Shown: piece by piece, positions 4,807 to 50,412 of the stretch
How positions within the stretch are numbered: the first letter of the stretch is position 1
Layout of the letters: each line of letters starts with the position of its first letter
From: Kiritimatiellia bacterium
GTDB taxonomy: Bacteria; Verrucomicrobiota; Kiritimatiellia; RFP12; UBA1067
Length of the DNA stretch: 64,000 nucleotides
Assembly (NCBI GenBank): GCA_050949565.1
Contig: JBMNFY010000017.1
Location: forward strand, 1,431,299 to 1,495,298
Direction: 5' to 3'
Position numbers and translations under genes: made by a program
The notes under the pieces: model-generated
What the model was told of the DNA's origin: nothing
The model's database searches: none
Seen by the model: the letters and a program-made list of their open reading frames with translations, nothing else

Positions 4807-4843
4807 GGGCGCGGCTACGGGACTGCGGGGTACTACCGGTGGT

Positions 4844-13052: not shown

Positions 13053-13157
13053 CTTAACTCCTCTGTTGTGTCCTGCCCGGCCACGAGCCGGGCGTTTGTG
13101 TCAGACCGACGCGGGCTTTGCCCGCAACCCCTTTCGGTCTCACGTAAAAAACGCTGA

Positions 13158-14366: not shown

Positions 14367-14389
14367 ACTTCTGCACCCAAACTGAAACG

Positions 14390-24700: not shown

Positions 24701-24809
24701 GAGGGCATCCTTCGGTCCGAAGACCAGAAACAAACAGACCTTCTGCCCGCTATTGTAGCGTGTCAGGGGGAGGGTGAACAGCGAATAACGAATTCAGTCT
24801 TTTAGGCTT

Positions 24810-28659: not shown

Positions 28660-28780
28660 CGAAGCAAAACGCTGCATGCTCTTCCTCCTTTTTACAGACG
28701 CGCTACTGACAGCCTGACGCGGAGCAACGCCCGCAGCACCGGCGGCACCCGCAGTATCGGGAAAACCTCCGCGCGCAACG

Positions 28781-30067
28781 CTACGCCAGCAGGCGCGCGG
28801 CGGCGGTACCGCCGTCTTGCGCGAGGGCGTCCACCATCTCTGCGGTGATGCGGATATCCTTGAGCTTGGCGTTGCTCGGAGCCTCGAACATGATCTCCAT
28901 CATCAGGTCTTCCATGACAGCCCGCAGACCGCGTGCGCCGGTTTTGCGTTGCGTGGCCAGCTTGGCAATGCCGCGCAGCGCGTCGTCATCAAAAGCAAGC
29001 GAGACGCCACCCATGGCGAGTAGCTTCTGGTACTGGCGCACCAGACAGTTCTTGGGCTCGGTAAGAATACGCACCAGATCGTCTTCGGTCATCTCGCTCA
29101 TTGAGGTGATCACCGGCAGACGACCGACAAATTCCGGGATCAGGCCGAAGCGGATCAGGTCTTCCGGCTGTACAGACAGCGGCGCAGGACGCCCGTCCTT
29201 GGCGGTGGATTTGCGCGTGTTCTTGTGCTGCTCGCCATAGCCGATGGTCTGACGTCCTTCGCGCTGGCGTACGATGGTTTCCAGCCCCACGAAGGAGCCG
29301 CCGCAGATGAAGAGGACATTGCGCGTATTGATCGCGATGTACTCCTGCTGCGGGTGTTTGCGGCCGCCCTGCGGCGGCACACGCGAAATGACGCCCTCAA
29401 GGATCTTGAGCAACGCCTGCTGCACGCCTTCACCGGAGACGTCGCGTGTGATCGAGACGTTCTCGGTCTTGCGGGCGATCTTGTCGATCTCATCGATATA
29501 GACGATGCCGCGCTCGGCCTTGGCGACATCCATATCCGCCGCTTGAAGCAGGTAGAGCAGGATGTTTTCGACGTCCTCGCCCACATAACCGGCCTCGGTG
29601 ATGGTGGTAGCGTCGGCAATCGCGAACGGCACATCCAGCAGGCGCGCCAGCGTGCGCGCAAAGAGCGTCTTGCCGCAACCGGTGGGACCGATGAGCAGGA
29701 TATTGCTCTTTTCGATCTCCACGTCTGCGAAAGGATCAGACTTGCCGCCAGTCGGCTGGTTCAAGCGTTTGTAGTGGTTATGCACCGCGACCGCGAGCAT
29801 TCTCTTGGTGTGGTCGTGGCCGATGATGTACTGGTCGAGGAATTCCTTGATCTCAGCGGGCGGCGGCACTTTAAGGGCCGGTAGCGTAGACGCATCACTG
29901 CTCTTCTTTTGCGGCGAGTTTTCACTGATGATCCTGGCGCAGATATCGACGCACTCTTCGCAGATGTTCACGTCGGGGCCAGGAATGATCAGCACACCGG
30001 AGCGTGCATTCCTGCCGCAAAATGAGCAGGCCAAGTCGCCTGACGAACTTGAAGAGCGACGGGCCAT
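28781..30067 (-). CDS. clpX: ATP-dependent Clp protease ATP-binding subunit ClpX
   Basis: N-terminal C4 zinc finger, Walker A 'GPTGCGKT', IGF-loop region. Confidence 0.95.
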
Positions 30068-30068
30068 C

Positions 30069-30680
30069 TTATTTCTCCTGCACGCGTTTTACCAAAACCT
30101 CGTCAACAAGCCCGTACGTCTTGGCTTCGTCGGCAGACATGAAGAAGTCGCGTTCGGTATCTTTCGCCAGCGTGGTGGCTTTCTTGCCGGTGTGTGCGGC
30201 GAGGATTTCGTTGAGGCGGTCTTTGAGGCGCAGGATCTCTTTGGCCGCAATGCTGATATCGGTCGCCTTGCCTTCCGCGCCGCCCCAGGGCTGGTGGATC
30301 ATGATACGCGCGTTGGGTAGCGAGTAGCGCTTGCCCTTGGTGCCAGCCGCCAACAGTACAGCACCCATGCTCGCCGCCTGGCCCACGCAATAAGTCGCGA
30401 TGTCGCAAGTGACGAACTGCATGGTGTCGTAGATAGCGAGGCCAGCGGTCACCGAACCGCCCGGCGAGTTGATGTAGACCGAGATGTCCTTGGTGGCATC
30501 CTGCGACTGCAGGAAGAGCAGTTGGGCGATGACCAGATTGCTGATCTCATCGCTGATTGCCGTGCCGATGAACACAATGCGGTCTTGCAACAACCGCGAA
30601 TAGATATCGTAGGCGCGTTCGCCGCGACCGGTCTGTTCAACCACGATCGGCACGAGAACGCTGTCTTGGGGATTGATCAT
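30069..30680 (-). CDS. clpP: ATP-dependent Clp protease proteolytic subunit ClpP
   Basis: 203 aa; '[15 protein letters not shown]...GQAASMGA' catalytic region. Confidence 0.95.
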
Positions 30681-30692
30681 AGTGGGCCTCGT

Positions 30693-31985
30693 TTATTTCT
30701 TGGCTGCATCCAGCAGGCTCTGCATGGTCTTCTCGTCGCGGATCCGGGAACGCAACATATCCATGCGGTCGTTCTTTTCGATCTGAGCGCGGATCTTCTC
30801 GGGCGTGGAACGTTGTCCTGCGGCCAGCGTCTGAATCTTGGCGTCGACCTCGTCATCGCTAACCGTGATGCCTTCCTCCTCCGCGATGCGGCCAAGCAGG
30901 TAGCGCAAGCGCAGTTGGCGCTTGGCGGTGAGGGTGGCGCTCTCAATGATTGCATCGCGGTTCTGCTCCAACTCTTCGCGCGTGAGACCGCGGTAATGCG
31001 CCTCGTTCACCACGGTGTCGAGCACGGCATTGATCTCGTCCGCGACAAGTGACTCGGGCAGGTCGAACTCGGCTTTCTTGAGCAGAAACTCGACCACGGT
31101 GTCTCTACGGCGCTGCTCCTCGGCCTGTACCGCAGCCTCCAGCATACGTTTGCGGGTCTGGTCGCGCAGTTGGTCAAGCGTTTCGAGCTTGAACTGCGCC
31201 AGCAGTTCGGCGTCTTCCGCCACCTGACGCGTGCGAACAAGTTTGGGTGTCACAGTGTACACGGCTTTCTTGCCGCGCAGCGCTTCGATCGGATGATCCT
31301 TGGGAAACTTGACCTTGACCTCTTGGGTCTCGCCGACCTTCACGCCAACGAGCGCATCGAGAACCTCTTGGACAAAGCGTCCTTCCTCAATCTGCACCCA
31401 GAAACCGGTGCCTTCGGAGATCGGCTTGGCCTCCTCCGCCAGCGTGTGGATCGGCTGGTCATCCACAAGACCCGTGAAATCGATACTGACCAGATCGCCG
31501 GCCGCGATCGCGTATTCAGGAGCTGCTTCTTCAAATTTGGCAAAGGCTTTGCGCAACTGGTCGAGTTGCTCATCGACCTGTTCTTCGGTGACGGTCGGCT
31601 CATCGAAAGTGACCGGAATCTTCTTGTACTTCGGCAGGTCAAACTCCGGCTCGGCATCGACCGTCATTGTAAAGGTGATGCCGGTTTCGGGCGAGAAGAG
31701 CACGTTGTCGATATCGCGCAGTGCCACCATTTTGACACCGGCCTGTTCCAGCGCAGGCTTGTAGAAGGCCTGGAAGAGCCGTCTCTGCACCTCCTCCATA
31801 ATCTGCGAATGGAACTCGCGCTTGATGATCTCGCGCGGCACCTTGCCGGGACGGAAGCCGGGGACGCGTCCTTCGCGCATAAAGACCTTCAGCACTTCGT
31901 CATAGTCGTTGCGGGTCTCATCCGCCTCGGCCTTTACGATCAGCTTGACCTTACACGGGCCGACATTCTGGGTATCCACTTTCAT
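30693..31985 (-). CDS. tig: Trigger factor
   Basis: 430 aa; the 'GFRPGKVP' ribosome-binding motif; tig-clpP-clpX synteny. Confidence 0.9.
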   Translation of the reverse strand: MKVDTQNVGPCKVKLIVKAEADETRNDYDEVLKVFMREGRVPGFRPGKVPREIIKREFHSQIMEEVQRRLFQAFYKPALEQAGVKMVALRDIDNVLFSPETGITFTMTVDAEPEFDLPKYKKIPVTFDEPTVTEEQVDEQLDQLRKAFAKFEEAAPEYAIAAGDLVSIDFTGLVDDQPIHTLAEEAKPISEGTGFWVQIEEGRFVQEVLDALVGVKVGETQEVKVKFPKDHPIEALRGKKAVYTVTPKLVRTRQVAEDAELLAQFKLETLDQLRDQTRKRMLEAAVQAEEQRRRDTVVEFLLKKAEFDLPESLVADEINAVLDTVVNEAHYRGLTREELEQNRDAIIESATLTAKRQLRLRYLLGRIAEEEGITVSDDEVDAKIQTLAAGQRSTPEKIRAQIEKNDRMDMLRSRIRDEKTMQSLLDAAKK

Positions 31986-32287
31986 CCGATTTCAAAACCT
32001 TTCGCTACTTTCGCCTCTTCCGCTATCAAAAAAGTCAGACAGGGTAACATGCCTCCACCCCGAATTCACGCAAAAAAGCACACCGCGCGGTAATTGGTAA
32101 TCGTTTAGTAACAAGGAGCATGCGAGTTTAGTGCGTGGTTTGTGTGTGCGCAGTCGGGAGCGCGGGCGTCCCCGCCCGCAGAAAGTTGAACGTTGAGCGT
32201 TAAACGTTTTTTAACTCTGAACGCTGAACGTCGAATGCTGAACGCTGAAGTGAAAAACTCCTAAATCCCAACTCCTAAATTCTCCTT

Positions 32288-32320
32288 CGGGTGCTGATTC
32301 AACCGGTTGAATCAGCACCC
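32288..32320 (-). terminator. Perfect 32-nt palindrome (GGGTGCTGATTCAACC|GGTTGAATCAGCACCC) 5 nt 3' of rho
   Basis: Direct inspection; no U-tract. Confidence 0.4.
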
Positions 32321-32324
32321 GTCA

Positions 32325-33960
<1,636 letters not shown>

Positions 33961-33986
<26 letters not shown>

Positions 33987-34578
33987 TGGCTTTCTCCATC
34001 AAGAAGCGGTAGACTTTTTTCGCTTCCCTCGCCAACGCCTCAGCATCGGCATCATTATGAACCACGAGATGCGATCGGGCGGCTTTTTCCGCAACCGGCA
34101 TCTGCGCGGCGATACGTTTACGGGCCTGTTCATCAGTCAGACCTCTAAAACGCATCAGTCGTTCGCGTTGAAGCGCCTCGTTTGAAACGAGGCAGATGAT
34201 GATATCCCAGTCGTCCGTCCATCCCGCCTCAAACAAAAGCGGGATCACGACAATCCTCAGTGTATCTGAAGGTTCCTCCAGCCAGCGCCGCAGGGCCGTC
34301 CGCACCAGCGGGTGCACAACCGCATTCACCTGCCGTCTGGCTTCCGGATCACTGAACACGCGTTCAGCGAGCACGGCACGGTTGATTCCGCCATGCTCAT
34401 CGAGAACGGAGGAGCCGAACAGGCGCACCAAATCAGGCACGGCCGCACCGCCGGGCGCCTCCAGGCGGTGCACCACGTCGTCGGCGTCCAACAATTCCAC
34501 GCCTAATTGCTCAAGGGCTCGGGAAAAGAGACTTTTACCGCACGCAATGCCGCCGGTTATCGCTACACGCATGACCAT
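33961..34578 (-). CDS. coaE: Dephospho-CoA kinase
   Basis: '[10 protein letters not shown]' P-loop; 205 aa. Confidence 0.85.
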
Positions 34579-34695: not shown

Positions 34696-35349
34696 TTATT
34701 GGACGGCCGCATCCGGTGCCGGTGCCGCGCCACCTTCCGGCGCACTCGGAGCCGAAGGCGTACCCGCCGCCAGCAACGCAGACTCGCCGCCGGTCCGCAC
34801 CACGCGGCCGGCAGGATCCACCAAGCGCGCCGTCACGAATACCAGCAGATTACGTTTGATCGACTGCTCAGAACGGCTCCGGAACAGACGGCCGAGGAAC
34901 GGCAGATCGCCGAGGAACGGGATCTTGTCCTCCATCGTCTTGCGGTCTTCCGTGATCAGGCCGCCCATGACGACCGTCGCGCCGTTGTAAACCGAAAGCT
35001 GTGTCTGCACCGAGCGCACATGGAAGAAGGGCTGCTCCATCGGCAGATCGTGTACTCGGCTCTCTGCGACACCATAAATGACTCCTCCAGGAGACTCGCT
35101 CCCAGACCCGCTTACGCACGGCCTCGGAATCTTTGTGCCGTAGTTCTTCCAGACCGGCTCAGAAACCACCTGCGGGTTCAGCAACAGGTTGATCATCTGG
35201 CCCTCAGCCGAAACTTCCGGCACCACCTGCAGGATCACGCCCACCTCGCGCATCTCGAAGTTCTGCGGCTCAACCATGAAGGGACCGGACACCGTAGGTG
35301 GCTGAGGAGGTACTGCTGCCGCCCGATGTATTGACCTCTTGGACTTCAA
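34696..35349 (-). pseudogene. C-terminal secretin-domain fragment of a PilQ/GspD-family secretin. It is out of frame with the upstream N-terminal part
   Basis: 'IPFLGDLPFLGRLFRS...NLLVFVTARLV' secretin signature. Overlaps the 35270..37897 ORF by 80 nt in a different frame. Confidence 0.7.
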
Positions 35350-37897
35350 ATTCGGTCGGATAGATGTACTCGGTGACGACCTTCATGATGGCTTCCTGCC
35401 CCGACTTGGTAACCACCTTGGGGGCCGACAGCAGATCCGTATCTGAACGCTGGCTCAGCATGTGCAGGATCATAGAGAGGTCAGCATTGCCAAGGAAAGC
35501 GTTGATACGCATGAAATTGTCGTTGATCCTGTTGCCTTCGCCGGCGATTGCGTTACCCTCGGTGCTCAGGTAGCGCTGACCGGTGCTGTAATTGACGCCA
35601 TCGATGGCATCAATGCTTGCGTTGTGATTGGGTGCGAGCACCGTGCCGTATTGGCCGGCACCGACCGCACCGGGCTTCAATGTGGCCCCGTCCCATCTAT
35701 AGCCACCCTGTCCGGCTGCGCTTCCGGGACGCGTATAGGGCGCATAGCCCATCAGCGGTGTCTCGCCATCAGCCGCAAACAGCGGGTGGCCCGCCGCATC
35801 CGTGAGCTGAGTCGGCTTGTTGCTGAACTCGCGCATGTTGAGCGCTTTGTCGAGGAAACCGCCAGCGTCGAAGCTGAAGTCGCTGTTCAGCAGCCACTCG
35901 AAACCGAGCGAGTTGAGGTCTTCCTGCGCGACCTCCACGAAGCGCGCCTCAATCTCGATCAAGCGGGGCGTGACGTTAAGGTCTTCCAGAACCTGCTCAA
36001 AGACAGCGAGTTGCTCAGCCGTATTGGTGACACGCAGCTTGCCGATGGTGGCGAGGTAGGAGATCGAGGAGCCGTCCGGCCACTTCACGCCCAACTGCTC
36101 GAAGAAGACCTTCCAGTCCTGCTTCTGACCCATGTCCGCCGTCTGCATAAAGGTTGTATCGCCGCCGCCGCCCTGCGGCCCCATCTCGCTGATCGCAGCC
36201 GTTACGCGGTCAGTCAGAGACGAGAGCACGTTGTAAGAGCGGGTCATCAGTTCGGTGTCCGGTTCGTTGGCCGGCACGATCATCACGATGTTGCCGCGGA
36301 TCTTGAACTTCATGCCGGTCACGTCGCAGACCAGCTTGAGAGCGTCGTAAAGGCTGATGAAGCGGGCGCTCAACGCCGAGATGGTCGGTGCCCCGCCCGG
36401 TGCCGGAGCGGCAGAGACCGGCGCGAAGGGATCCGGATTTTCCGGGGCAGGAGCAGCGGCGGTCGGGGTGGTGCTCAGCTTGAGCACGAGGTTCACGCCG
36501 CGCTGCTCGAGCGGAATTTCGGGCTTGTCGAAATCCCGGCTGGCCTGCTTAAAGAAGTCCACCGCATCGATAATGGTGGCGGGCGGACGGAAAGTGACTT
36601 CCGGAATGACGATATCGCGCAGCTTCTGCTGGACAACCTGCTCGGCCGTCTTGGTGCCCAGTGGATCGATGGTCGGCTCTTTACTTGTGAGATCGCCGCT
36701 CCCCTTGGGGCGCTGTGCACTATCGATGGCGTAGCGATCCGGCGTCCATGACGCACGCACGTCTCGGATCATCTTGCTGCGAGTGGCTTCAAACTCAATG
36801 TCCGAAACAGTTTTCATGCGGTCGGCGATGCGGTCGCGCAACTCCATGGCCTCAACCTCGTAGGGATGATCGCGCAGAATCAACTCACACTCCTCCATCG
36901 CTTTGTCATACTCGGCGGTGGTATAATACTGGCGCGAACGGCGCAGACGGCGCCGGATCTCGTCACGCTGCGTCTTGTATTCTTCCTCGTTGACGCGGTG
37001 CGAAATGCTGGAAGTATCGGCTTCGACCTTCGGCGGCTGACGCTTCAGTGCTTCAATCATACGCTCGGCCTGCGGATGGCCGTACTCTTTGGCCTGTGCG
37101 GCCAGCGGCAGCGCCTTCTCGACATCGGCCGCCTTCATCGCCTGCTTGGCATCCAGATAGAAGGCTTCGGCCATGCCGGCCTTGGCTTCATCGCGTGCAG
37201 CCTGGGTGGCGGGACGATTGCCGATGAACTCAAGCGCTTGCTTGTATTGATCCCGAGCCAACTCGTAGTCGCCAGCAGCCAAAGCTTTACGCGCGGCCTC
37301 CAGCGAGGCGAAGCCGTGGCTATCGAGCGACTTGCGGCGGATGGTCTCCAACGTCACCAGTTCCGATATCAAGCTGGCAGTGTCACCGTCCTGCTGCGCG
37401 ACAGCCGGAGTGGCAGGCGCGGGGGCCGCAGCGGGCTCAGCCGCCGGTGCGGGCGCAGGTTCTGCCGCCGGTGCAGGCGCAGGCTCTGCCGCCGGGGCAG
37501 GTGCGGGCTTTTCCTCAGCCTTGGGCTCTGCTGCGGGAGCAGGAGCGGGCGCAGGCTTTTCTTCAGCCTTAGGCTCTGCTGCGGGAGCAGGTGCCGGGGC
37601 GGGTTTTTCCTCGGCCTTCGGCTCTGCCGCCGGGGCAGGCGCGGGCTTTTCTTCAGCTTTCGGTTCCGCTGCAGGTGCGGGCGCGGGCGCAGGAGCCGGT
37701 TCGGCGGGTTTGGCCTCCGCCTTGGGCGCCGCCTCTGCGGCTGGAGCCGCCGGTTGCGCCGCCGCCGGTTTCTTACGCTGCCCACCCAAATCCTGCAACA
37801 GCGCTTCGAGATCATCTTGCGCGTACAGGCCGGTCACGGCTCCACAAGCCATGGCCGAAACACTCAACACTAACAACCACCGTTTACTATGCGTCAT
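35270..37897 (-). CDS. N-terminal part of the secretin: signal peptide, (PAPAPAAEPKAEEK)n low-complexity linker, TPR-like region and secretin N domains
   Basis: 'RLIEIEARFVEVAQEDLNSLGFEWLL' N-domain motif. The frame ends at 35270 before the secretin C-domain. Confidence 0.7.
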   Translation of the reverse strand: MTHSKRWLLVLSVSAMACGAVTGLYAQDDLEALLQDLGGQRKKPAAAQPAAPAAEAAPKAEAKPAEPAPAPAPAPAAEPKAEEKPAPAPAAEPKAEEKPAPAPAPAAEPKAEEKPAPAPAPAAEPKAEEKPAPAPAAEPAPAPAAEPAPAPAAEPAAAPAPATPAVAQQDGDTASLISELVTLETIRRKSLDSHGFASLEAARKALAAGDYELARDQYKQALEFIGNRPATQAARDEAKAGMAEAFYLDAKQAMKAADVEKALPLAAQAKEYGHPQAERMIEALKRQPPKVEADTSSISHRVNEEEYKTQRDEIRRRLRRSRQYYTTAEYDKAMEECELILRDHPYEVEAMELRDRIADRMKTVSDIEFEATRSKMIRDVRASWTPDRYAIDSAQRPKGSGDLTSKEPTIDPLGTKTAEQVVQQKLRDIVIPEVTFRPPATIIDAVDFFKQASRDFDKPEIPLEQRGVNLVLKLSTTPTAAAPAPENPDPFAPVSAAPAPGGAPTISALSARFISLYDALKLVCDVTGMKFKIRGNIVMIVPANEPDTELMTRSYNVLSSLTDRVTAAISEMGPQGGGGDTTFMQTADMGQKQDWKVFFEQLGVKWPDGSSISYLATIGKLRVTNTAEQLAVFEQVLEDLNVTPRLIEIEARFVEVAQEDLNSLGFEWLLNSDFSFDAGGFLDKALNMREFSNKPTQLTDAAGHPLFAADGETPLMGYAPYTRPGSAAGQGGYRWDGATLKPGAVGAGQYGTVLAPNHNASIDAIDGVNYSTGQRYLSTEGNAIAGEGNRINDNFMRINAFLGNADLSMILHMLSQRSDTDLLSAPKVVTKSGQEAIMKVVTEYIYPTEFEVQEVNTSGGSSTSSATYGVRSLHG

Positions 37898-37978: not shown

Positions 37979-39052
37979 CTAATCAAGCTTGGGAATAACT
38001 TTTTGTTGCCCGTTAGCCTCGTTCTCTATCGTGACAACCGTTTTCTCACCATCCACGGTAAGGACGCGGTATGTTTCTTCGCGGACTTTGAACGTGCCAC
38101 CCTCCAACACCGTGTACTCGGCATTGTCGAGCGGGAACACGATCACCGCTTCAACATCTGTGACCTTTCCGCCTTCGTTGATTGTCAACGTCATCACCTT
38201 GTTGTCCGACAGTCTTTTCACTTCTACGGTCGAGACGTCCACCCGCATTTTGATGCCGGGCATATTAGGATTCTCGCGCTCGACGGATTTTGCCGTGACC
38301 GTTCCCGCAGCATAACCGGTCTCGCCGATCGGCTCATTCTCGCGCACCCAGTGGGTCCTGCGGATCGGTTCGACTTGGTTAAACACAATCTGGTTTTTGC
38401 CATCAGGCATCTTGTTGACGCCGCTGAAAATCAATGGCATGCGTTTGCCGCGCAACTCTTTCACGCGCAGGAGACTGACCAGCGGCGGATGTGATTTGGG
38501 GTCTTTCGGATCCGTCTTGGCGATGAACTCCTGAAGGTTGGTAAAGCCGTCGCCGTCGAGGTCGCCGTGGGCGTCCGCAGGGTCGTTCGGATTCAGACCA
38601 AGCGCAATCTCGATGCGATCCGGGATACCGTCGCCGTCGGTATCCAAGTCTGGATCCGCCTCCGCAGGTTTCGGTTGGCCGCCCCCGCAGAAGGGGCATT
38701 TCTCGGCGGCGTAGGGGATGGGTTTCTGGCACTCTTTAACCACGCAGGTCACACGCCGCTCCGGCATCAAAAAACCTGCCTTCTGGGCATCGGGAGTAGC
38801 AAGCTGCAACGGTGTGCGCGCCAACCGGATGGCGTCTTCAAACTCCGTCATGTCGATGGCTTTGAGGGCAGTGGAATCAGGCTTCAGCGAATCGATCCTG
38901 AGCTTGTAGTTCGCCTCTTCACGCTGCCGGGCAGGCCCTGCCGAGCGCGTGAGGTAAAACAGGGAGATGACGAGGCCAATCAGCACCACGACCACGATCA
39001 CTTTGTCGTAGTACTTGACGATGGGGTTATTCGCGTTGAATTTCAAGGCCAC
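37979..39052 (-). CDS. Membrane-anchored protein in the PilP position, with a CxxxC...CxxC zinc-ribbon-like motif and thrombospondin-type-3 Ca-binding repeats
   Basis: N-terminal TM; 'DTDGDGIPD...DLDGDGFTN'; sits between the PilO-like gene and the secretin. Confidence 0.45.
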   Translation of the reverse strand: MALKFNANNPIVKYYDKVIVVVVLIGLVISLFYLTRSAGPARQREEANYKLRIDSLKPDSTALKAIDMTEFEDAIRLARTPLQLATPDAQKAGFLMPERRVTCVVKECQKPIPYAAEKCPFCGGGQPKPAEADPDLDTDGDGIPDRIEIALGLNPNDPADAHGDLDGDGFTNLQEFIAKTDPKDPKSHPPLVSLLRVKELRGKRMPLIFSGVNKMPDGKNQIVFNQVEPIRRTHWVRENEPIGETGYAAGTVTAKSVERENPNMPGIKMRVDVSTVEVKRLSDNKVMTLTINEGGKVTDVEAVIVFPLDNAEYTVLEGGTFKVREETYRVLTVDGEKTVVTIENEANGQQKVIPKLD

Positions 39053-39055
39053 GGT

Positions 39056-40024
39056 TTATACTCCCTCAAACGAGTAGACATCGATCTCAAGTTTCACTGC
39101 CACCGGCGGTTCCAGTTCGGGATCGGTCACAATCCGTTCGACATGCGACAACTTGGCCGGATCGACAGGTTCCGCCGCGCCTTCGGCGGCAGCCTTCGAA
39201 GAACTCTCTTTTCTCTTGGCGTTGAACTGCGCCAAGGGATCGGCCGTCTTGCGCAACTCGGCTTCGGCCACAACCACAAACATATCCATGGCCGCCAGCC
39301 GGTTCAGCGCCTCAATGAGCGCAACAGGGCGCGCGACGAATTCGAGCGTAAAGCGCTGGCTGGTCCAATACGCCGACTCCGTGCGTGCGGCGGCCCCGGA
39401 TGCTCTGGCACTTCCGCCGCTGTCATCCCGGCGACGGGAACGGCGGCGCGAGGACGACTCCTGTTCCTCTTCCTCTTTTTTCACGACGTCAAAGACCTCG
39501 CGGGAAACGCTTCTCAACTCCATGATGCCGGCTGCGTAAAGCTCCTCACAGAGCTTCTCGATGATGGTCAGTTGCGCGGTCAGGCGATCCACATGTTCTG
39601 ACGCAGGCAGACTGTCGGACTGGCCAAGGTATTGGTCGAAGCCGAAGTTAAATCCGGGGGCGACAACCCTGCCCTGCACCGCACCGGCCTGAGCGGAGAG
39701 TTTGCGGACCGTAGCTTGAAGCGTCTGCTTGAAACTGGTCGGCGTTTTGGATTCAATCTGGAGGTCGCCTTTGTGAAGCTGATTGGAGGCGGTCACGAGC
39801 CAGCCTTCCAGCACCTTCTGATCCTCGCCGACGCGCGCGATATTCTCGTCGCTGGGGAAAACCTTGCCCCGGTAGATCTGCTGCAACGCCTGATATGCCT
39901 GGTCACGCTCTTCTGCCGCCCTGTTTTTGGCGGTTGTTTGGGTAAAGAGGAACCAGCCGGCAACGCCGCAGACAGCGGCCATCACGATGCCGCAAACGAT
40001 CATTATGATCTGTTGACGTTTCAT
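39056..40024 (-). CDS. PilO-like pilus assembly protein (TM plus coiled coil)
   Basis: Called from position and architecture only. Confidence 0.45.
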   Translation of the reverse strand: MKRQQIIMIVCGIVMAAVCGVAGWFLFTQTTAKNRAAEERDQAYQALQQIYRGKVFPSDENIARVGEDQKVLEGWLVTASNQLHKGDLQIESKTPTSFKQTLQATVRKLSAQAGAVQGRVVAPGFNFGFDQYLGQSDSLPASEHVDRLTAQLTIIEKLCEELYAAGIMELRSVSREVFDVVKKEEEEQESSSRRRSRRRDDSGGSARASGAAARTESAYWTSQRFTLEFVARPVALIEALNRLAAMDMFVVVAEAELRKTADPLAQFNAKRKESSSKAAAEGAAEPVDPAKLSHVERIVTDPELEPPVAVKLEIDVYSFEGV

Positions 40025-41712
40025 TTCGTTTCGGTATCCTTCGCGGCTGCTTCGGCCAACGTCGCCTCGATTGTAAACTCAATCAAATACGCCTCGATAT
40101 CCTTCTGGCCGGTGATTTTGACATCTTTCGGTCCATTGCCGAACACTGGCTGCGTCTTCAGACGGTCGCGCAACACCTCCAACGCTGTCGCACTGCGTCC
40201 GGCTTCGCGCTCTTTCTCCTCGACCGCCTTGAGCTTGTCCACCCAACCGCGTCCGACAATGCGCAATCCGGTCACAACGCCGCCCTCGTCCTTGATCGGC
40301 ACCAGTTCGGTGAGCCAGACCCCATCCAGCAGGCTTTTGCGCACGGCGTCCACGCGTTTCAGCCATGCCGTCCGCTGCAAGATCACGTCTCGCATCGCCT
40401 CGGCCTTCTTCGCGACCTCTCCTTCGGCAGCCTGCGCCTTGTTGAGCCGGGCCAGATCGCCCTTGCGCACGTCCAGCGCCGCGTTCACCTGCGCGCTCTG
40501 GGCATGGTAGAGTTCTGCGAGTTGCTTGGCGTGCACCGCCCAGATGAACAGGCAGAGCAACACGCCGGCCGCCGCCAGAGCAAAGTACGGCACGCGCTTC
40601 TTGAACGACTTGCGCTTCACGATCTCGGGCGGCATCAGGTTGATTTCAACCGGACACGCCAACGAGCGGCGCAGCGCCAATCCCACGCTCTCGGCCAACA
40701 CGAAGGCGTCTATGCTAACCCGGTCGCTATTGATCCGGTTGCTGATCCCGACGTTCTCAAACGGGTTGAGGTAGGTGACCTCAATCTGCAACTTGTCGTG
40801 AAAGAAGGTGTCCAGATGCGGCATAACCGACGAACCACCCGTCAGGAACATCCGGACCGGTGCGTTGCCGCCCTGCTGGCTACGATAAAAGTTAACGGAA
40901 CGATTGATTTCGGCGTGCAGACGCGTCACCACGTTGCGCACGATTTTCGAAACCCGCTCGGATGTCTCGTCCTCCGAGACGGTCACCCCGCCCAGCGATA
41001 CGAAAGCAACCTGCCGTTTCAATGCCTCGGCCTCTTCAAAGGAAATCTGGAAGCTCTTGGCGACCTCTTGCGTGATGGCATTACCGGCCACCGGGATGCA
41101 GCGGGTGTAAATTTTCTCGTCTTCAATAAAAATCAGATTGGTCGAACGCGAACCGATATCAAGCAACACCGTGCAGCCGTCCAACTGCGAGTAGTTGTAG
41201 CGCAGGCAGTTGTAGAGCGCCATCGGTGCCACATCGACGACCTCGGGCTCCAGCCCCATCTCCACGATGCGGTCGGTAATCTCGCGGACGTTCTCGGTCT
41301 TGGCCGCGACGATCATCGCACACTGCTCGCCCATTGTGGCGTCGCCGATGAACTGGTGGTTCCAAACGATCTCGCTCATCGGGAACGGGACGTTCTGCTC
41401 CACCTCGTACTGCACCATCTGGAGCAGTTTGTCCTCGGCGACGGCAGGCAACCGCACGAAACGCGGAAATACCATCTGACCGGAGAGCGAGAGCATCAGC
41501 GGCGCGGGGCGGATCCCGCATGTCTTCATGATCTCGCGGATAGCGGACTCCAGATTCGGACCAACACCTGTGTCGGTCTCCGGATTGCCTCCCACCTCGG
41601 CCATGCCGTAGTTGGTCAGCTCCGGCGCGCGCCCGCTCCTGACGGCGAATTCGGCCAATACAACTTTGCTCGCGCCCACATTGAGCGCGAGGATACGATC
41701 AGACGAGAACAC
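40021..41712 (-). CDS. pilM: Type IV pilus assembly ATPase-like PilM (actin/FtsA fold) fused to a PilN-like TM/coiled-coil C-terminus
   Basis: N-terminal 'ILALNVGASKV...' actin-like fold; TM 'VPYFALAAAGVLLCLFIWAV' at about aa 370, then coiled coil. Confidence 0.7.
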   Translation of the reverse strand: MFSSDRILALNVGASKVVLAEFAVRSGRAPELTNYGMAEVGGNPETDTGVGPNLESAIREIMKTCGIRPAPLMLSLSGQMVFPRFVRLPAVAEDKLLQMVQYEVEQNVPFPMSEIVWNHQFIGDATMGEQCAMIVAAKTENVREITDRIVEMGLEPEVVDVAPMALYNCLRYNYSQLDGCTVLLDIGSRSTNLIFIEDEKIYTRCIPVAGNAITQEVAKSFQISFEEAEALKRQVAFVSLGGVTVSEDETSERVSKIVRNVVTRLHAEINRSVNFYRSQQGGNAPVRMFLTGGSSVMPHLDTFFHDKLQIEVTYLNPFENVGISNRINSDRVSIDAFVLAESVGLALRRSLACPVEINLMPPEIVKRKSFKKRVPYFALAAAGVLLCLFIWAVHAKQLAELYHAQSAQVNAALDVRKGDLARLNKAQAAEGEVAKKAEAMRDVILQRTAWLKRVDAVRKSLLDGVWLTELVPIKDEGGVVTGLRIVGRGWVDKLKAVEEKEREAGRSATALEVLRDRLKTQPVFGNGPKDVKITGQKDIEAYLIEFTIEATLAEAAAKDTETK

Positions 41713-42413
41713 TATTGCACCACCTCGTAATCGTCCGGGTTAACCAAGGCAAACGGCGTCTTCGAACGCTCCAACAGCCCTGGGCGCCGGACCAAGAACG
41801 GATTGCCAGCCGCATCGCGCCTGTCCATCACGTTGGTGTCGCGCCACCACTCCTGCGGCAGTTGAATGCCGGTGGCCAGCGCCTCGCTGGCCACCACCTT
41901 ACCGTCCTTACCGGAAATTTCGAGTGCGATCGCGACCGGCTCGCCGTAGCGTTCCACGAGACTCGGCGGCAGAGCCACGCAACTCATGTGGCTGCCTTTC
42001 GGGATGTCGATGTACTTGACCGTCGCGGTGTAGTAACTGTAAATATCCTTGTTGTCGTCATCGCGGCCCTTGGTCATCACGTGGTAGATGAAGGTCAACT
42101 CGTCGGTCCACTTGGCGGAAGTTTCGTACCTCACCTCGAAGAGCGCCCACTCGCGCGGCCTGCGGCTGACTCTGGGCTGGACGTTGTTCACCGAATAGTT
42201 GAACTCGGGGGTTCTCACCATCGCCGTCTTGCCCGGCGGCGGGAAGCGCGTAATCTTGACCGTCTCCTCTTTCTTGGCCGTGGCCTGCGTAGCCGTACGC
42301 TGACTCAGCCGCCCGACCTGAGCCACAGCAGACTCAGCCAGACAGAAGAGGGCTGCTACCACACACACCGTTCGCAGAAACGTTTGCTCTCTTTTCATGT
42401 CGACGATCTCCAA
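41712..42413 (-). CDS. Secreted hypothetical protein, first gene of the pilus-like operon
   Basis: Signal peptide; shares a 1-nt overlap (coordinate 41712) with pilM. Confidence 0.5.
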   Translation of the reverse strand: MEIVDMKREQTFLRTVCVVAALFCLAESAVAQVGRLSQRTATQATAKKEETVKITRFPPPGKTAMVRTPEFNYSVNNVQPRVSRRPREWALFEVRYETSAKWTDELTFIYHVMTKGRDDDNKDIYSYYTATVKYIDIPKGSHMSCVALPPSLVERYGEPVAIALEISGKDGKVVASEALATGIQLPQEWWRDTNVMDRRDAAGNPFLVRRPGLLERSKTPFALVNPDDYEVVQ

Positions 42414-43156: not shown

Positions 43157-43545
43157 GCGCTGCTCGGTTTAACCACAGAGGCACGGAGGCACAGAGGTTT
43201 TTTGGAGCAACTAAGGGGCAGGTAATTAGACGACCACAAGAGGTTCAAGGGTTCAAGGGTTCAAGAGGTTCATCGGGATCGGGATCGCTATCGGGATCGG
43301 ACAGAACAGACAAAAACAGCGCAGCACTTTTACTCTCGCGGCTGCGGGGCGCTGCGTGGCCCAACAAAGAGAGGCTGACCCGCGACATTCGACCCGCGAC
43401 CTGCGGCGGTAGCGATACCGATACCGATAGCGATACCGATAGCGAACTAATGCGGGCGGAGCCCGCAACCCAATTCTTACCACGAAGTCACGAAGGAACA
43501 CGAGGGGTCCAAAAACCTCTGTGCCTCCGTGTCTCCGTGGTTCAA
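43157..43545. mobile_element. MITE-like element of ~385 bp with ~35-bp terminal inverted repeats (AACCACAGAGGCACGGAGGCACAGAGGTTTTTTGG / reverse complement). Internal (GGTTCAAG)x3, GGGATCGGGATCGCTATCGGGATCG and its near-inverse CGATACCGATACCGATAGCGATACCGATAGCG
   Basis: Direct inspection. The TIR module matches the units of array 1 (547-1711) and partial copies at 48190-48272 and 63582-63710. Confidence 0.7.
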
Positions 43546-47991: not shown

Positions 47992-48189
47992 ACCCTTTGC
48001 CTTCCTGTGGCTGTCAAAAAAACGAAGGCTATAGGGTAGTAAAAAACAGGAAGAGGAACAAGCTTAAGACGAAGCCGAAGATCGGTTAGCCTAAAAAGAG
48101 CAGTTGAACCGTCAACTCTCTTTGGTTTCTGGTTTCAAGGCTTCATGGTTTCATCCAAATCGGGATCGGGATCGCTATCGGGATCGATT

Positions 48190-48272
48190 GTTTAACCACG
48201 GAACACACCGAACACACGGAAAGGCATGGCTCTGTTTCCGTGTGTTTAGTGTGTTCCGTGGTTCCAATCAGA
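48190..48272. repeat. Long hairpin: a 29-bp stem with two mismatches, AACCACGGAACACACCGAACACACGGAAA ... TTTCCGTGTGTTTAGTGTGTTCCGTGGTT. It is a MITE-TIR-like 'GTTTAACCAC' module folded on itself. GGGATCGGGATCGCTATCGGGATCG sits upstream at 48161
   Basis: Direct inspection. Confidence 0.7.
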
Positions 48273-48371
48273 AATTGCGTTCTGCACCAAACAGGTGCGG
48301 CGAGGATCGCGATGAAAGCCAATGTTTACGCGGCTTTGCTCAAAATCCGTACGCCCAACTGCCGTTTTTAG

Positions 48372-48465
48372 GGTTAGTGACAGGGGGTGCGAGTCGGGCG
48401 TTTCTGGTGAAAAGGGGGGCAGGGAGTCGGGAGCGTGGGCGTCCTCGCCCGCAACAACGTGTCTC
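48372..48465. repeat. Partial REP/MITE copy: left TIR GGTTAGTGACAGGGGGTGCGAGTCG plus the core ...GTTTCTGGTGAAAAGGGGGGCAGGGAGTCGGGAGCGTGGGCGTCCTCGCCCGC
   Basis: Same family as 55180-55310 and 27645-27724. Confidence 0.65.
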
Positions 48466-48879
48466 GCAAAAGGCTGATGCTTACACATACTCGTTTTTAG
48501 GTTTTTTGACAGGATTTACATGATTAACATGATTTGACAACACTAAGGGACAGGTGTTTTGGCCACGCTAAAAATGCCCAAGTTATGGGCAAGGAAAGGA
48601 GCACGGACATTCCTGTCCGTGCCACGGGTTGGAAAACCCGTGCCCCTGTTTTAATGCCAAGTTATAGGCAAGACGATTGATTTAGACGATTCTCAAGTGG
48701 CGTGGCTCGCGGAGCGCTGGGAGGGACGAGCGTTGCTCGTCCGGGCGGCGTTTCACGCCGCCACACGGGCAAGATGCCCGTGCCACACAGCCCGGCACCT
48801 GCAACTAGGGGACAGGTATTTAGACCCCCAAAAAACCTTCGTGCCCTTTGTGCCTTTGTGTGAGAAAAAACTCCTGCCT

Positions 48880-50298
48880 CTAGCCGATTATGTCGAAGCC
48901 GAAGTACCGCACCGCATTGCGGTAGCAGATGTCTTTGACGATCTCGCCGACCCACGGGATGTCGTCGGGAATCCTGCCGTCCGTAATGTCGCCGCCCAGC
49001 AGATTACAGAGGATGCGGCGGAAGTATTCGTGGCGCGTATAGCTTAGGAAAGAGCGGCTATCCGTCAGCATGCCGACGAAACGGCTGAGCAGCCCGAGTT
49101 GCGAGAGCGCCTCTAACTGGCGCAACATGCCATCGCGCTGATCGTTGAACCACCAGCCGCTGCCGAACTGCATGCGGCCGGCCACCGGACCGCGCTGGAA
49201 ATTGCCGATCATCGTGCCGACCACTTCGTTGTCGCGCGGATTGAGCGTATAGATCACGACGCGCGGCAGGGCGTCTGCCTGCTCCAGCCGGTCAAACAGT
49301 CGCGCCATAGGCACCGCCACGTTCCAGTCGCCGATGCTGTCGAATCCGGTGTCCGGGCCGAGCGCCTCGAACATCCGAGTGTTGTTGTTGCGCAGAGCGC
49401 CGTAGTGGATCTGGGCGCTCCAATCACTGCGCGCGTCCATACTCAGCGCTTCAAACAAAAACGCCGAACGGAACGCGGCGATCTCATCAGCCGTGGCGGT
49501 GCCGCCTTGGCGTACACGCGCGAAGAGTTCGCGGATCGCGGCATCGCGGTAGGGCGTGGCATAGAGCGTATCCAGCCCGTAGTCGGAAAGACAACAACCG
49601 TTCTGCGCAAAGAAGTCGTGGCGCTTCTGCAAAGCGCAGAGCAGGTCGTCCCACGTCGCGACCGGCATGGCTGCGGCGGCGGCGAGCCGATCCAGCCACG
49701 CATTCCAAAAGGCGGGCCGGTCGATGGCCAGCGCCTTGTCCGGACGCCAGGTGGGCAGAACCTGCACCTCAAAGCCCGAGGCCTTCACCGCCGCATGGTG
49801 TTCGAGCGTGTCACAGGGATCGTCCGTGGTGCAGACCAGCCGCACGTTGCTGCGCGTCATCAGGCCACGCGCGCTGAAAGCGGGCTCTGCCAGACGTTCG
49901 GCGGTCGTCGACCAGACCGCCTCCGCCGTGGCGGGCGTCAGCAGATCGTAAATGTCGAAATAGCGCGCGAGTTCAAGCTGCGACCAATCGAAGAGCGGGT
50001 TGCGCAACAGGTAGGGCATGGTTTCGGCGAACTTCTGGAACTTCTCGCGGTCGGGCGCGTCGCCGGTGATAAAGCGCTCGTCGATCCCGTTGGAGCGCAT
50101 GGCGCGCCACTTATAGTGGTCGCCGCCGAGCCACACCTGCGCCATATTCTCCCAGCGCTTGTCTTGCGCGATCTCCGCCGGCGGCAGGTGGCAGTGGTAG
50201 TCAATGATCGGCATCTGCGCGGCGTAGCCGTGATACAACTCGCACGCCGCCGGGCTCTGAAGTAAAAAATCGTCGTGGATAAAAGGTTTTGCAGTCAT
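48880..50298 (-). CDS. uxaC: Glucuronate isomerase
   Basis: 'MPIIDYHCHL' N-terminus; about 470 aa. Confidence 0.85.
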   Translation of the reverse strand: MTAKPFIHDDFLLQSPAACELYHGYAAQMPIIDYHCHLPPAEIAQDKRWENMAQVWLGGDHYKWRAMRSNGIDERFITGDAPDREKFQKFAETMPYLLRNPLFDWSQLELARYFDIYDLLTPATAEAVWSTTAERLAEPAFSARGLMTRSNVRLVCTTDDPCDTLEHHAAVKASGFEVQVLPTWRPDKALAIDRPAFWNAWLDRLAAAAAMPVATWDDLLCALQKRHDFFAQNGCCLSDYGLDTLYATPYRDAAIRELFARVRQGGTATADEIAAFRSAFLFEALSMDARSDWSAQIHYGALRNNNTRMFEALGPDTGFDSIGDWNVAVPMARLFDRLEQADALPRVVIYTLNPRDNEVVGTMIGNFQRGPVAGRMQFGSGWWFNDQRDGMLRQLEALSQLGLLSRFVGMLTDSRSFLSYTRHEYFRRILCNLLGGDITDGRIPDDIPWVGEIVKDICYRNAVRYFGFDIIG

Positions 50299-50412
50299 GG
50301 TTCCATGGTATCCTAACGGCTGACGCCGGGTCAATGAAACCGACGTTTACTTTTTAGACCAGCCCCCTCCCACCCTCGAACGAAATCCATCCCTTGCGAT
50401 GGGATTGTGCTG

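Follow-up and report, generated by a model that had tools for sequence, protein, structure and literature searches.

The locus and its genes

The question raised by this locus is what kind of machine is encoded by a compact run of type IV pilus-like genes in a metagenome-assembled genome (MAG) of digester origin that belongs to the Kiritimatiellia rather than to the Verrucomicrobiia sensu stricto. Our analysis of the window, by which we mean the whole 64,000-nucleotide stretch of DNA, leads us to conclude that the run very probably corresponds, in Kiritimatiellia, to the Amuc_1098-1102 ("MUL2") cluster of Akkermansia muciniphila, and that its products form the scaffold of a machine that spans the envelope and descends from the type IV pilus/type II secretion (T4P/T2SS) lineage. 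The first-pass annotation had listed a secreted protein, a PilM-PilN fusion, a PilO-like protein, a 357-aa membrane protein and a secretin, followed by coaE and rho. All of these open reading frames lie where it put them and in that order on the minus strand, with coaE and rho downstream. The interval that it gave, 37979-42413, holds the first four genes, but the secretin falls outside it.

41712..42413, minus strand: Amuc_1102-like secreted protein, 233 aa from a TTG start
40021..41712, minus strand: PilM-transmembrane-coiled coil-PilN/GspL-like fusion of the Amuc_1101 family, 563 aa
39056..40024, minus strand: Amuc_1100-family protein in the PilO/GspM position, 322 aa
37979..39052, minus strand: Amuc_1099-family protein in the PilP/GspC position, 357 aa
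34696..37897, minus strand: Amuc_1098-family secretin, split into an 875-aa ORF (35270-37897) and a 217-aa ORF (34696-35349)
33961..34578, minus strand: coaE, dephospho-CoA kinase (Pfam CoaE, 160.5 bits)
32325..33986, minus strand: rho, transcription termination factor (Pfam Rho_RNA_bind and ATP-synt_ab)

The first four genes are packed in an operon-like manner, with gaps of -1, -4 and +3 nt between successive genes and +81 nt up to the secretin, and rho overlaps coaE by 26 nt. By NCBIfam family the five co-oriented, tightly spaced cluster genes read 1102-, 1101-, 1100-, 1099- and 1098-like. The full gene order recurs in the homologous loci L007 and L008 (Kiritimatiellia) and L009 (Ca. Spyradenecus), and it is at least partly kept in L043 (Roseibacillus), L040 and L019. 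Synteny among sibling and homologous loci marks coaE and rho as conserved downstream neighbours of the cluster, the coaE position being retained in L002, L007 and L040. The window also carries glycan-related genes encoding GH92 and GH127 family members, a SASA esterase, UxaC and an MFS transporter.

Family assignment

The resemblance to Amuc_1098-1102 proposed in the first-pass annotation is borne out by matches of all five cluster proteins to the NCBIfam Amuc_1102, 1101, 1100, 1099 and 1098 models and by matches to solved Akkermansia structures. The scores are 29.8 bits (E 4e-7; cut-off 55) for the 233-aa protein against Amuc_1102_rel, 471.9 (E 3.9e-141; cut-off 650) for the 563-aa protein against Amuc_1101_fam, 81.2 (E 8.8e-23; cut-off 180) for the 322-aa protein against Amuc_1100_fam, 83.7 (E 1.7e-23; cut-off 50) for the 357-aa protein against Amuc_1099_fam and, for the intact secretin of the sibling contig L091, 446 (E 2e-133; cut-off 750) against Amuc_1098_fam. 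The curated equivalog cut-off is thus passed by Amuc_1099_fam only, one model of the five, so the cluster proteins are best described as diverged family members and the same function is not guaranteed for the four that score below. Precomputed Pfam annotation of identical proteins agrees, with PF28178 (Amuc_1102) on the first gene product and PF28028 on the 322-aa protein, and PGAP already names two of the cluster proteins, one as PilM and the other as an "Amuc_1100 family pilus-like protein"; names from other sources are in line with this. The cluster is ordinary for this group of bacteria and of a kind that is already known and partly annotated by PGAP.

Predicted architecture of the inner-membrane and periplasmic proteins

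The 563-aa protein passes the PilM model TIGR01175 (160.5 bits, cut-off 133; 131.8 bits for Pfam PilM_2) and divides as follows; structure modelling used no templates.

40663-41712, minus strand: PilM actin-like domain, approximately aa 1-350
40528-40584, minus strand: transmembrane (TM) helix, aa 377-395
40057-40320, minus strand: bb-aa-bb periplasmic domain after a long helix, approximately aa 465-552

Fold analysis assigns the C-terminal half to the PilN/PilO/GspL-type periplasmic domains, which confirms the proposed PilM-PilN fusion and shows it to have the architecture of GspL, in which a single polypeptide carries an actin-like domain in the cytoplasm, one TM helix and a ferredoxin-like domain in the periplasm. 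Family models found no separate PilN or PilO protein in the cluster. The 322-aa protein is bitopic, anchored at its N-terminus by a TM segment (aa 6-24), and no PilO or GspM HMM matched it. Its profile aligns with the Amuc_1100 structures 6kny, 6lad and 6laf over positions 43-324 (E ~8e-18). Since the solved Akkermansia Amuc_1100 shares the PilN/PilO-type fold, we place the homologue in the PilO/GspM role.

The 357-aa protein in the PilP position had been described as unlike canonical PilP lipoproteins, and this holds: it is held by a TM helix with no lipid anchor and carries two inserts.

38948-39004, minus strand: TM anchor, aa 17-35
38687-38746, minus strand: Cys4 knuckle, C103/C108/C119/C122
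38498-38650, minus strand: two TSP3 calcium-binding repeats, aa 135-185
37994-38467, minus strand: two beta domains, one of them PilP/GspC-HR-like, aa 196-353

The TSP3 repeats read from the sequence are real (two stretches matching Pfam TSP3_bac, 38.6 bits, cut-off 25), but the cysteine motif is C103-x4-C108...C119-x2-C122 and not the CxxxC...CxxC first written down. Across 54 homologues neither the Cys4 motif nor the aspartates of the TSP3 repeats vary. Structure prediction recovered a PilP/GspC-type beta domain that matches 4av2_M, 2ivw, 2y4x and 3jc8_P; the model gives this domain the fold shared by PilP and the HR domain of GspC, a fold type that binds secretins. No PDZ or coiled-coil domain follows at the C-terminus, and the T2SS-C HMM did not match. 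In a recent survey amuc_1099 is still listed as uncharacterised.

For the first gene product the start is likely to be the ATG at 42398, the gene callers' choice, which gives 228 aa where the TTG gives 233 aa. The protein has a Sec-type signal peptide with a hydrophobic N-terminal segment at residues 12-34, and it matches the Amuc_1102 crystal structure, PDB 7dsz (E 5e-4). No class III (prepilin) signal was found in it, and the prepilin motif is absent from every frame of the 64-kb window.

The secretin and its frameshift

The secretin named by the first-pass annotation is present, but in the window it consists of two ORFs that overlap by 80 nt, a frameshift that had been missed. The two halves score 288 and 162 bits against Amuc_1098_fam and 97.8 bits against Pfam Secretin, with profile positions 51-169 of the latter falling in the second ORF. 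The protein comprises a signal peptide, a region of repeats rich in Ala, Pro, Glu and Lys, a helical region, one or more N-domains and a C-terminal secretin domain. An N0/STN domain was not detected at the sequence level, nor did Pfam give an AMIN match at E <= 1. The intact copy in L091 (1074 aa) gives 118 bits for the Pfam secretin domain, 132 bits for GspD TIGR02517 (cut-off 351) and 108 bits for PilQ TIGR02515 (cut-off 284).

35284..35293, minus strand: frameshift patch, GGTGTCCGGT in the window and GTGCCGGTT in seven sibling contigs with intact secretins, net +1 nt
35039..35142, minus strand: hypervariable cassette within the secretin domain, a strain-variable insertion
37434..37693, minus strand: tandem 24/48-nt repeats (TRF), a AAEPKAEEKPAPAPAP-type low-complexity linker near the N-terminus

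The cassette differs from L091 and L087 at 96 positions and from L005 and L006 at 20, in a gene that is otherwise ~98% identical; the copy number of the tandem repeats is also strain-variable, L004 having a 48-nt deletion.

The broken frame raises the possibility that the cluster in the sequenced genome is a decaying remnant, in which a secretin pseudogene with a truncated product that lacks most of the beta-barrel domain has left the system no longer functional. We consider this somewhat unlikely. The frame is unbroken at 35284-35293 in 12 of 12 sibling contigs that span the site, nine of which carry the complete gene (1058-1074 aa), so the frameshift is either a private mutation or an assembly error; we found no other record of the 875-aa product. 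The lesion consists of small differences clustered in 10 nt beside the hypervariable cassette, as is typical of mixed-strain consensus errors, and there are no further stops or frameshifts in the gene. The other cluster genes are intact and identical to copies in many independent assemblies. The secretin copy in the window is thus probably either mis-assembled or inactivated.

What machine the cluster would encode

In the fusion the PilM domain is cytoplasmic, and one TM helix followed by a long coiled coil links it to the periplasmic PilN/GspL-type domain. The outer-membrane secretin, which is closest to Amuc_1098, is the last component, and the first gene encodes an Amuc_1102-like protein that is exported by Sec and lacks a prepilin signal. 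We propose that the PilM-PilN fusion would heterodimerise with the Amuc_1100-like protein in the inner membrane. Docking on the periplasmic N-domain of the secretin may fall to the HR-like domain of the 357-aa protein, with the calcium-loaded TSP3 segment acting as a rigid spacer across the periplasm. Genes for a motor ATPase, a platform protein and any pilins would have to lie in other parts of the genome. The precedent of A. muciniphila suggests that the machine could let a glycan-degrading anaerobe capture or transport complex glycans at its surface. The Amuc_1098-1102 proteins are abundant in the envelope fraction (Ottman 2017, PMC5332112), and reviews describe MUL genes for pili and a periplasmic complex as required for mucin uptake (PMC12418764; PMC13174399, citing Davey 2023).

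Other readings of these genes have to be weighed against this counterpart of MUL2. A cell-division role for the cluster, with the 563-aa protein as a divisome component of the FtsA type, is almost certainly wrong, even though Amuc_1101 was historically annotated as FtsA (PMC5332112) and there are weak matches to Pfam FtsA (53 bits) and TIGR01174 ftsA. The latter reaches 58.3 bits against a cut-off of 175.85, and PRK09472 reaches 19.5 against 409, while the pilM model passes; the C-terminal domain is PilN/GspL-like, and the neighbours are the secretin, homologues of Amuc_1099, 1100 and 1102, coaE and rho, with no ftsQ or ftsZ. We therefore rejected this identity. A canonical type IVa alignment subcomplex with its secretin, serving real retractile or adhesive pili with PilB, PilT, PilC and PilD encoded elsewhere and the Amuc_1102-like protein as an accessory or tip, is a more serious candidate, though we judge it unlikely. 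The PilM score, the PilN/PilO-like and PilP-like folds and the secretin are all consistent with it, and the Akkermansia cluster has been termed a type IV pili cluster, with pili-like structures reported (PMC5332112, PMC10688800, PMC13174399). However, the class III signal motif occurs nowhere in the window, the sole small exported protein has a Sec-type signal and lacks the hydrophobic alpha-1 helix, the PilP-position protein is no lipoprotein, and the secretin scores far higher with Amuc_1098_fam than with PilQ. No pilin, PilB/GspE, PilC/GspF, PilT or prepilin peptidase gene was found in the 64-kb window or beside the distant loci L009 and L043.

It is quite unlikely, in our view, that the cluster is a streamlined exporter of the type II secretion kind, in which GspL-like fusion, GspM-, GspC- and GspD-like parts would export folded cargo, glycoside hydrolases or surface proteins, by way of the secretin. 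GspD is the next best secretin model after Amuc_1098_fam, and the surrounding DNA has many genes for secreted glycan enzymes and giant surface proteins. Nevertheless, GspD stays under its cut-off, no T2SS-L, -M or -C HMM matched, the GspC-like protein has the C-terminus described above, and GspE, GspF, pseudopilins and GspO are absent from the window; in addition, the orthologous Akkermansia locus is tied to mucin uptake and not to secretion (PMC12418764, PMC13174399). A more speculative idea, to which we give little credence, is that the MUL2-type clusters of PVC bacteria (Akkermansia, other Verrucomicrobiia, Kiritimatiellia and MAGs labelled Lentisphaeria) form a distinct pilin-less branch of the type IV filament/T2SS superfamily that is neither pilus nor secretion system but an inward, gated outer-membrane portal capturing and importing large glycans. 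Such a branch would combine the GspL-like PilM-N fusion and its Amuc_1100 partner with a dedicated secretin and a GspC/PilP-like connector that binds calcium and is TM-anchored. If it were true, Amuc_1100 would be an inner-membrane PilO/GspM-like scaffold and no surface pilin.

For the window alone the practical point is small. Its wider interest lies in homology to the Amuc_1100 locus, which Akkermansia needs for mucin foraging. If the fold assignments hold for the MUL2 counterpart described here, the Amuc_1099 family would be a predicted PilP/GspC-type connector to the secretin and Amuc_1100-type proteins would be PilO/GspM-like scaffold partners in the inner membrane, which bears on how the Akkermansia proteins are interpreted.

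Comparison with known systems

Compared with the GspC-GspL-GspM and GspD proteins of type II secretion, the cytoplasmic domain in the window is PilM by sequence and not T2SS-L, the connector lacks a PDZ or coiled coil after its HR-like domain, and its Cys4 knuckle and TSP3 repeats are not known from GspC. The GspE/F/G-K/O genes are absent near the locus, and the sibling secretin scores 132 bits with GspD, below the cut-off of 351. The PilM-PilN-PilO-PilP proteins and PilQ of the type IVa pilus (Pseudomonas, Myxococcus, Thermus) follow the same positional logic as the window, and the likeness extends to PilM passing TIGR01175, the predicted PilP-type beta domain and the secretin domain. In contrast to that system, PilM and PilN are fused in the window and the PilN, PilO and PilP HMMs have no matches, the PilP analogue is TM-anchored with Cys4 and TSP3 inserts in place of a lipoprotein, and the secretin neither scores as a PilQ nor shows an AMIN domain in Pfam.

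Akkermansia MUL2 includes the TLR2-active Amuc_1100, which ranks among the best-studied gut-microbiota proteins that act on the host. The window shares with it the gene order and strand, 1102-, 1101-, 1100- and 1099-like and then the secretin, and each protein matches the corresponding NCBIfam model, with the Amuc_1102 and Amuc_1100 structures recovered by sequence. The PilM-TM-extension fusion is common to both, since the alignment with Amuc_1101_fam continues beyond the TM helix as far as position 480. The two differ in host, an anaerobic-digester Kiritimatiellia as against a gut mucin specialist, and they have diverged strongly, as the four scores under equivalog cut-offs attest. In the 357-aa protein, the Cys4 knuckle and the second of the two TSP3 repeats are additions with no equivalent in the Verrucomicrobiia-side orthologues at L019, L040 and L043, and the secretin of the window has a lineage-specific Ala/Pro-rich repeat N-terminus in addition to its frameshift. 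The downstream coaE-rho pair is common to both, and a secretin-coaE-rho run is reported for Akkermansiaceae MUL2 loci (neighbours in the Fig. 2B legend of PMC13174399). The conservation of the whole cluster together with coaE-rho out to digester Kiritimatiellia argues for a machine of the envelope that is old and general among PVC glycan degraders, and not for an adaptation to the gut or to a host.

Identity of the cluster

In identity and architecture the cluster is probably the counterpart of the Amuc_1098-1102 (MUL2) locus of Akkermansia. The first-pass annotation had pointed to this likeness, and computed matches to five NCBIfam families now confirm it. Its description of the locus, where four closely spaced ORFs occupy 37979-42413 on the minus strand and a secretin, coaE and rho lie downstream, is accurate apart from three corrections: the interval contains the four ORFs but not the secretin; the secretin is in place but is spread over two overlapping ORFs in the window instead of one; and the cysteine motif of the 357-aa protein is Cx4C...CxxC, not CxxxC...CxxC.

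Genes of the cluster and its downstream neighbours
41712-42413, minus strand, 233-aa ORF, Amuc_1102-like protein (gene callers start it at the ATG at 42398, which gives 228 aa)
40021-41712, minus strand, 563-aa ORF, putative PilM-PilN fusion
39056-40024, minus strand, 322-aa ORF, Amuc_1100-like protein
37979-39052, minus strand, 357-aa ORF, PilP-position protein
34696-37897, minus strand, secretin, downstream of the four-ORF block
33961-34578, minus strand, coaE, downstream of the secretin
32325-33986, minus strand, rho, downstream of the secretin

The spacing across the four ORFs is -1, -4 and +3 nt, with +81 nt to the secretin; promoter and terminator scans returned nothing informative. Hydropathy analysis gives a signal peptide on both the 233-aa protein and the secretin, a single N-terminal transmembrane (TM) anchor in the 322-aa (aa 6-24) and 357-aa (aa 17-35) proteins, and a sole, internal TM helix in the 563-aa protein (aa 377-395).

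NCBIfam matches, with the curated equivalog cut-off of each family
233-aa protein, Amuc_1102_rel: E 4e-7, 29.8 bits, cut-off 55
563-aa protein, Amuc_1101_fam: E 3.9e-141, 471.9 bits, cut-off 650
322-aa protein, Amuc_1100_fam: E 8.8e-23, 81.2 bits, cut-off 180
357-aa protein, Amuc_1099_fam: E 1.7e-23, 83.7 bits, cut-off 50
Secretin halves, Amuc_1098_fam: E 1.1e-85 and 1.9e-47, 288 and 162 bits, cut-off 750
Intact secretin of a sibling contig, Amuc_1098_fam: E 2e-133, 446 bits, cut-off 750

Because four of the five fall under their equivalog cut-offs, we regard the cluster proteins as diverged members of these families. The 233-aa protein also matched the crystal structure of Amuc_1102 (7dsz, E 5e-4), and a six-sequence profile combining the 322-aa protein with syntenic orthologues matched the Amuc_1100 structures 6kny, 6lad and 6laf at E ~8e-18 over almost the entire length. 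The profile was required, since phmmer with the 322-aa sequence alone did not find Amuc_1100 in the PDB. An FtsA/divisome reading, given in the first-pass annotation as an example of what would refute its assignment, is rejected on gene context and on HMM scores, the 563-aa protein exceeding the threshold of the pilM model TIGR01175 (160.5 bits against 133) and falling well below that of ftsA (58 bits against 176).

The proposed fusion of PilM to a PilN-like part in the 563-aa protein holds at the level of the fold, because of structural matches to PilN, PilO and GspL and because three homologue fragments were independently labelled 'PilN' by the JGI pipeline. In the AlphaFold2 model of residues 350-563 (pLDDT 80.7), one long helix, TM segment plus coiled coil, leads into a bb-aa-bb domain. 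The PilN, PilO and T2SS-L/M HMMs gave no match to this protein, and a homologue search with its C-terminal half returned only 14 fragments. The Amuc_1101_fam alignment extends to residue 479, beyond the TM helix, so the fusion is a trait of the family and not a novelty of the source genome.

Fold matches of the modelled domains (structure, score)
563-aa protein, C-terminal domain:
PilO, 2rjz_B, 7.7
XcpY/GspL periplasmic domain, 6ghu_A, 7.7 (75 of 78 residues, 2.5 A)
EpsL, 2w7v_B, 7.1
PilO, 3jc8_Oa, 7.0
PilN, 4bhq_B, 6.9
PulL C-terminal domain, 8a9w_A, 6.7
Amuc_1100, 6lad_A, 5.7
357-aa protein, beta region:
GspC HR domain of the GspC-GspD complex, 3oss_C, 9.2 (63 of 65 residues, 1.9 A)
PilP, 4av2_M, 7.2
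OutC, 6hcg_e, 6.9
PilP, 2ivw_A, 6.5
PilP, 2y4x_A, 6.5
PilP, 3jc8_Pa, 5.8
GspB, 4wfw_A, 5.8

The PilP-position protein

As modelled, the 357-aa protein carries the fold by which PilP and GspC bind the secretin N0 domain. The template-free AlphaFold2 model (pLDDT 77) runs from a TM helix and its helical stalk through a small knuckle (residues 100-125) and a TSP3 segment to two all-beta domains, at 196-260 (six strands) and 268-353; the first of these, with its six strands and 65 residues, is the natural candidate for the matching domain. Foldseek with the whole model returned nothing. The first-pass annotation had called this protein unlike canonical PilP lipoproteins, which is right in that it is no lipoprotein and does not resemble PilP in sequence, but does not extend to its predicted fold. 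A Pfam search at E <= 5 over all 54 family members found no PilP or T2SS-C, its sole matches being TSP3_bac and, both weak, a zinc ribbon and DUF6406, and a profile of the family alignment retrieved neither PilP nor GspC from the PDB sequences.

The TSP3 repeats noticed earlier are confirmed by a significant TSP3_bac match (38.6 bits). At 20.6 bits (cut-off 29) the zinc-ribbon match to UPF0547 is weak, but it recurs in 44 of the 54 members. Across these 54 homologues (52-89% identity), C103, C108, C119 and C122, the TSP3 aspartates and the C-terminal L356-D357 never vary, and K355 hardly does. Searching the representatives exhaustively with the family profile gave 31,507 matches, which is no gauge of family size because giant multi-TSP3 proteins swamp the search; true members of ~350 aa make up ~28 of the best 150. 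Since the Amuc_1099_fam alignment covers residues 142-342, the suggested connector role should hold for Amuc_1099 as well. Of the orthologues, only those on the Kiritimatiellia/Lentisphaeria side (L007-L009) carry the Cys4 knuckle and the second TSP3 repeat, whereas those on the Verrucomicrobiia side (L019, L040 and L043) have one motif, DxDGDGF[ST]NLxE...(D/N)PxxxxxS(H/F)P, directly before the beta domains.

The secretin gene

In the window, a frameshift of net +1 divides the secretin gene into ORFs of 875 and 217 aa, the first terminating at 35270. In a 10-nt patch at 35284-35293 (minus strand) the window has GGTGTCCGGT where seven sibling contigs with an intact secretin have GTGCCGGTT; the patch, with its net gain of one base, is the only difference from those seven here, and an eighth sibling (L088) has one further base difference 7 nt upstream of it. 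Programmed frameshifting is rejected because the frame is unbroken at the site in all 12 spanning sibling contigs, in nine of which the gene is complete (1058-1074 aa) and in three cut by the contig end. No other record of the 875-aa product was found. A hypervariable cassette within the secretin domain (35039-35142) lies ~140 nt from the patch, which is upstream of it, and differs at 96 positions from L091 and L087 and at 20 from L005 and L006, against ~98% identity between strains in the rest of the gene. The pattern may reflect diversifying selection on a surface-exposed loop, or inter-strain recombination. Judged from the sequence, the frameshift is probably either an error of assembly or consensus where strains vary, or a private pseudogene; small differences clustered beside such a region resemble the consensus errors of mixed-strain assemblies.

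In the N-terminal region (37434-37693), tandem repeats of 24/48 nt code for a linker of the AAEPKAEEKPAPAPAP type, rich in Ala/Pro/Glu/Lys; their copy number is strain-variable, since L004 lacks one 48-nt unit. A Pfam search of the secretin turned up no N0/STN domain.

Distribution and public records

The complete gene order is present in two Kiritimatiellia-type MAGs (L007 and L008; 51-77% identity to the window proteins) and in Ca. Spyradenecus (L009; Lentisphaerota at NCBI; 27-57%). Roseibacillus (L043) has at least the PilM-like, 1099-like and secretin genes by tblastn (~23-31%), a Verrucomicrobia MAG (L040) has the 1099-like gene, secretin, coaE and rho (~25-48%), and a Chthoniobacterales locus (L019) has the 1099-like gene and the secretin (~26%). 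The contig scan behind these comparisons gave 80 loci, only ~8 of which are real cluster loci; most are unrelated TSP3 proteins because the search patterns were TSP3-based. One of them, an Akkermansia locus (L018), was rejected as an orthologue, as it encodes a different TSP3 protein. Downstream of the cluster, a coaE-rho-tig-clpP-clpX run followed by a 317-aa protein without a Pfam match keeps the same order in all sibling contigs (window 27724-34578; loci L087-L094).

Dozens of metagenome contigs, from samples of biogas plants and digesters, encode identical proteins, and GenBank MGI6391413-416 are the same proteins on a 1.97-Mb contig, 'MAG: Kiritimatiellia bacterium'. In the PGAP annotation the 563-aa protein is a 'type IV pilus assembly protein PilM', the 322-aa protein an 'Amuc_1100 family pilus-like protein', and the 233-aa and 357-aa proteins are 'hypothetical'; remoter homologues of the 357-aa protein in Kiritimatiellia MAGs are called 'Amuc_1099 family pilus-like system protein' or 'thrombospondin type 3 repeat-containing protein'.

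Genomic surroundings

Housekeeping neighbours in the window include tig, clpP, clpX, hom, lysC, a citramalate/isopropylmalate synthase-like gene, purB, plsX and coaD. The glycan-related neighbours fit a polysaccharide-degrading lifestyle.

Glycan-related genes around the cluster
10875-16585, 25330-27240 and 48880-50334, glycan-degradation genes: SASA-type sialate O-acetylesterase-like protein (725 aa), GH92 alpha-mannosidase (731 aa), GH127 beta-L-arabinofuranosidase-like protein (636 aa), glucuronate isomerase UxaC
9496-10755, MFS transporter

Two giant surface proteins are predicted, one of 2661 aa (16748-24733, minus strand) with six lamin-tail (LTD) domains, CotH, PA14 and He_PIG Ig, the other of 2371 aa (55485-62600, plus strand) carrying a PATR repeat of the autotransporter type and a LamG-like domain. 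Tandem arrays at 675-1714 (115 nt x 9.0, 98% matches) and 2305-3278 (106 nt x 9.2, 99% matches) sit either side of an nrdR-like ORF (1860-2306, plus strand) and share a ATTTAGGATTTAGGATTTGG-type motif, inverted copies of which lie at 504-546 and 1823-1860; spurious translations of similar appearance turn up near 43253-43501 and 48104-48523. Rfam has no family for the arrays and found none at gathering threshold in the window. A GCTAGTG microsatellite (7 nt x 12, 4723-4807) separates a diacylglycerol-kinase-like gene from purB.

Discussion

The most likely role of the cluster, which we put forward tentatively, would be to capture or transport complex glycans at the cell surface, a proposal that rests on the analogy with A. 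muciniphila and on the glycan-degrading gene context. The A. muciniphila orthologues are abundant envelope proteins (PMC5332112), and its MUL genes are reportedly required for mucin accumulation and growth (PMC12418764; PMC13174399, citing Davey 2023). The PilM-PilN fusion and the Amuc_1100-like protein may pair in the inner membrane in the manner of PilN-PilO and GspL-GspM, while the 357-aa connector would contact the secretin through its HR-like domain. Its predicted calcium-binding TSP3 segment could stiffen the periplasmic stalk, to which the Cys4 knuckle, metal- or disulfide-stabilised, may add further stiffness in this lineage.

A canonical pilus machine whose remaining parts are encoded elsewhere is one alternative. 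Among the annotated neighbours in the window there is no pilin, PilB/GspE, PilT, PilC/GspF or prepilin peptidase, none of the frames of the 64 kb holds a prepilin-type (class III) signal motif, and the flanks of the distant cluster loci hold no pilus genes; within that scope these results argue against it. The Amuc_1102-like protein is the only small exported protein, and has a Sec signal without a hydrophobic alpha-1 helix. A T2SS-like exporter is another alternative. The locus might instead be inactivated in this strain, as the split of the secretin frame at 35284-35293 would suggest, yet all 12 spanning siblings keep that frame.

The cluster type is already known, being named in NCBIfam and Pfam, studied in Akkermansia and surveyed in Verrucomicrobiales, and it is partly annotated in the source genome. 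MUL2 is often kept in Verrucomicrobiales, less so in Chthoniobacterales, and is absent in Methylacidiphilales (PMC13174399); the text and available supplements of that 2026 survey, which lists amuc_1099 as 'uncharacterized', make no mention of Kiritimatiellia or Lentisphaeria. Our literature search found no paper pairing Amuc_1099 with PilP and none combining Kiritimatiell* with Amuc_1100. What this analysis adds is the model-based, fold-level evidence that the Amuc_1099 family may be a TM-anchored PilP/GspC-type connector, and the reach of the cluster into Kiritimatiellia and Lentisphaerota-labelled MAGs, with lineage-specific Cys4 and TSP3 additions.

The secretin-coaE-rho run matches in gene order that described for Akkermansiaceae MUL2 loci (PMC13174399, Fig. 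2B legend). The 563-aa protein has the architecture of T2SS GspL, with a PilM-like domain, a TM segment and a PilN-like domain in a single chain, and the 357-aa protein, unlike the lipoprotein PilP, is TM-anchored as GspC is.
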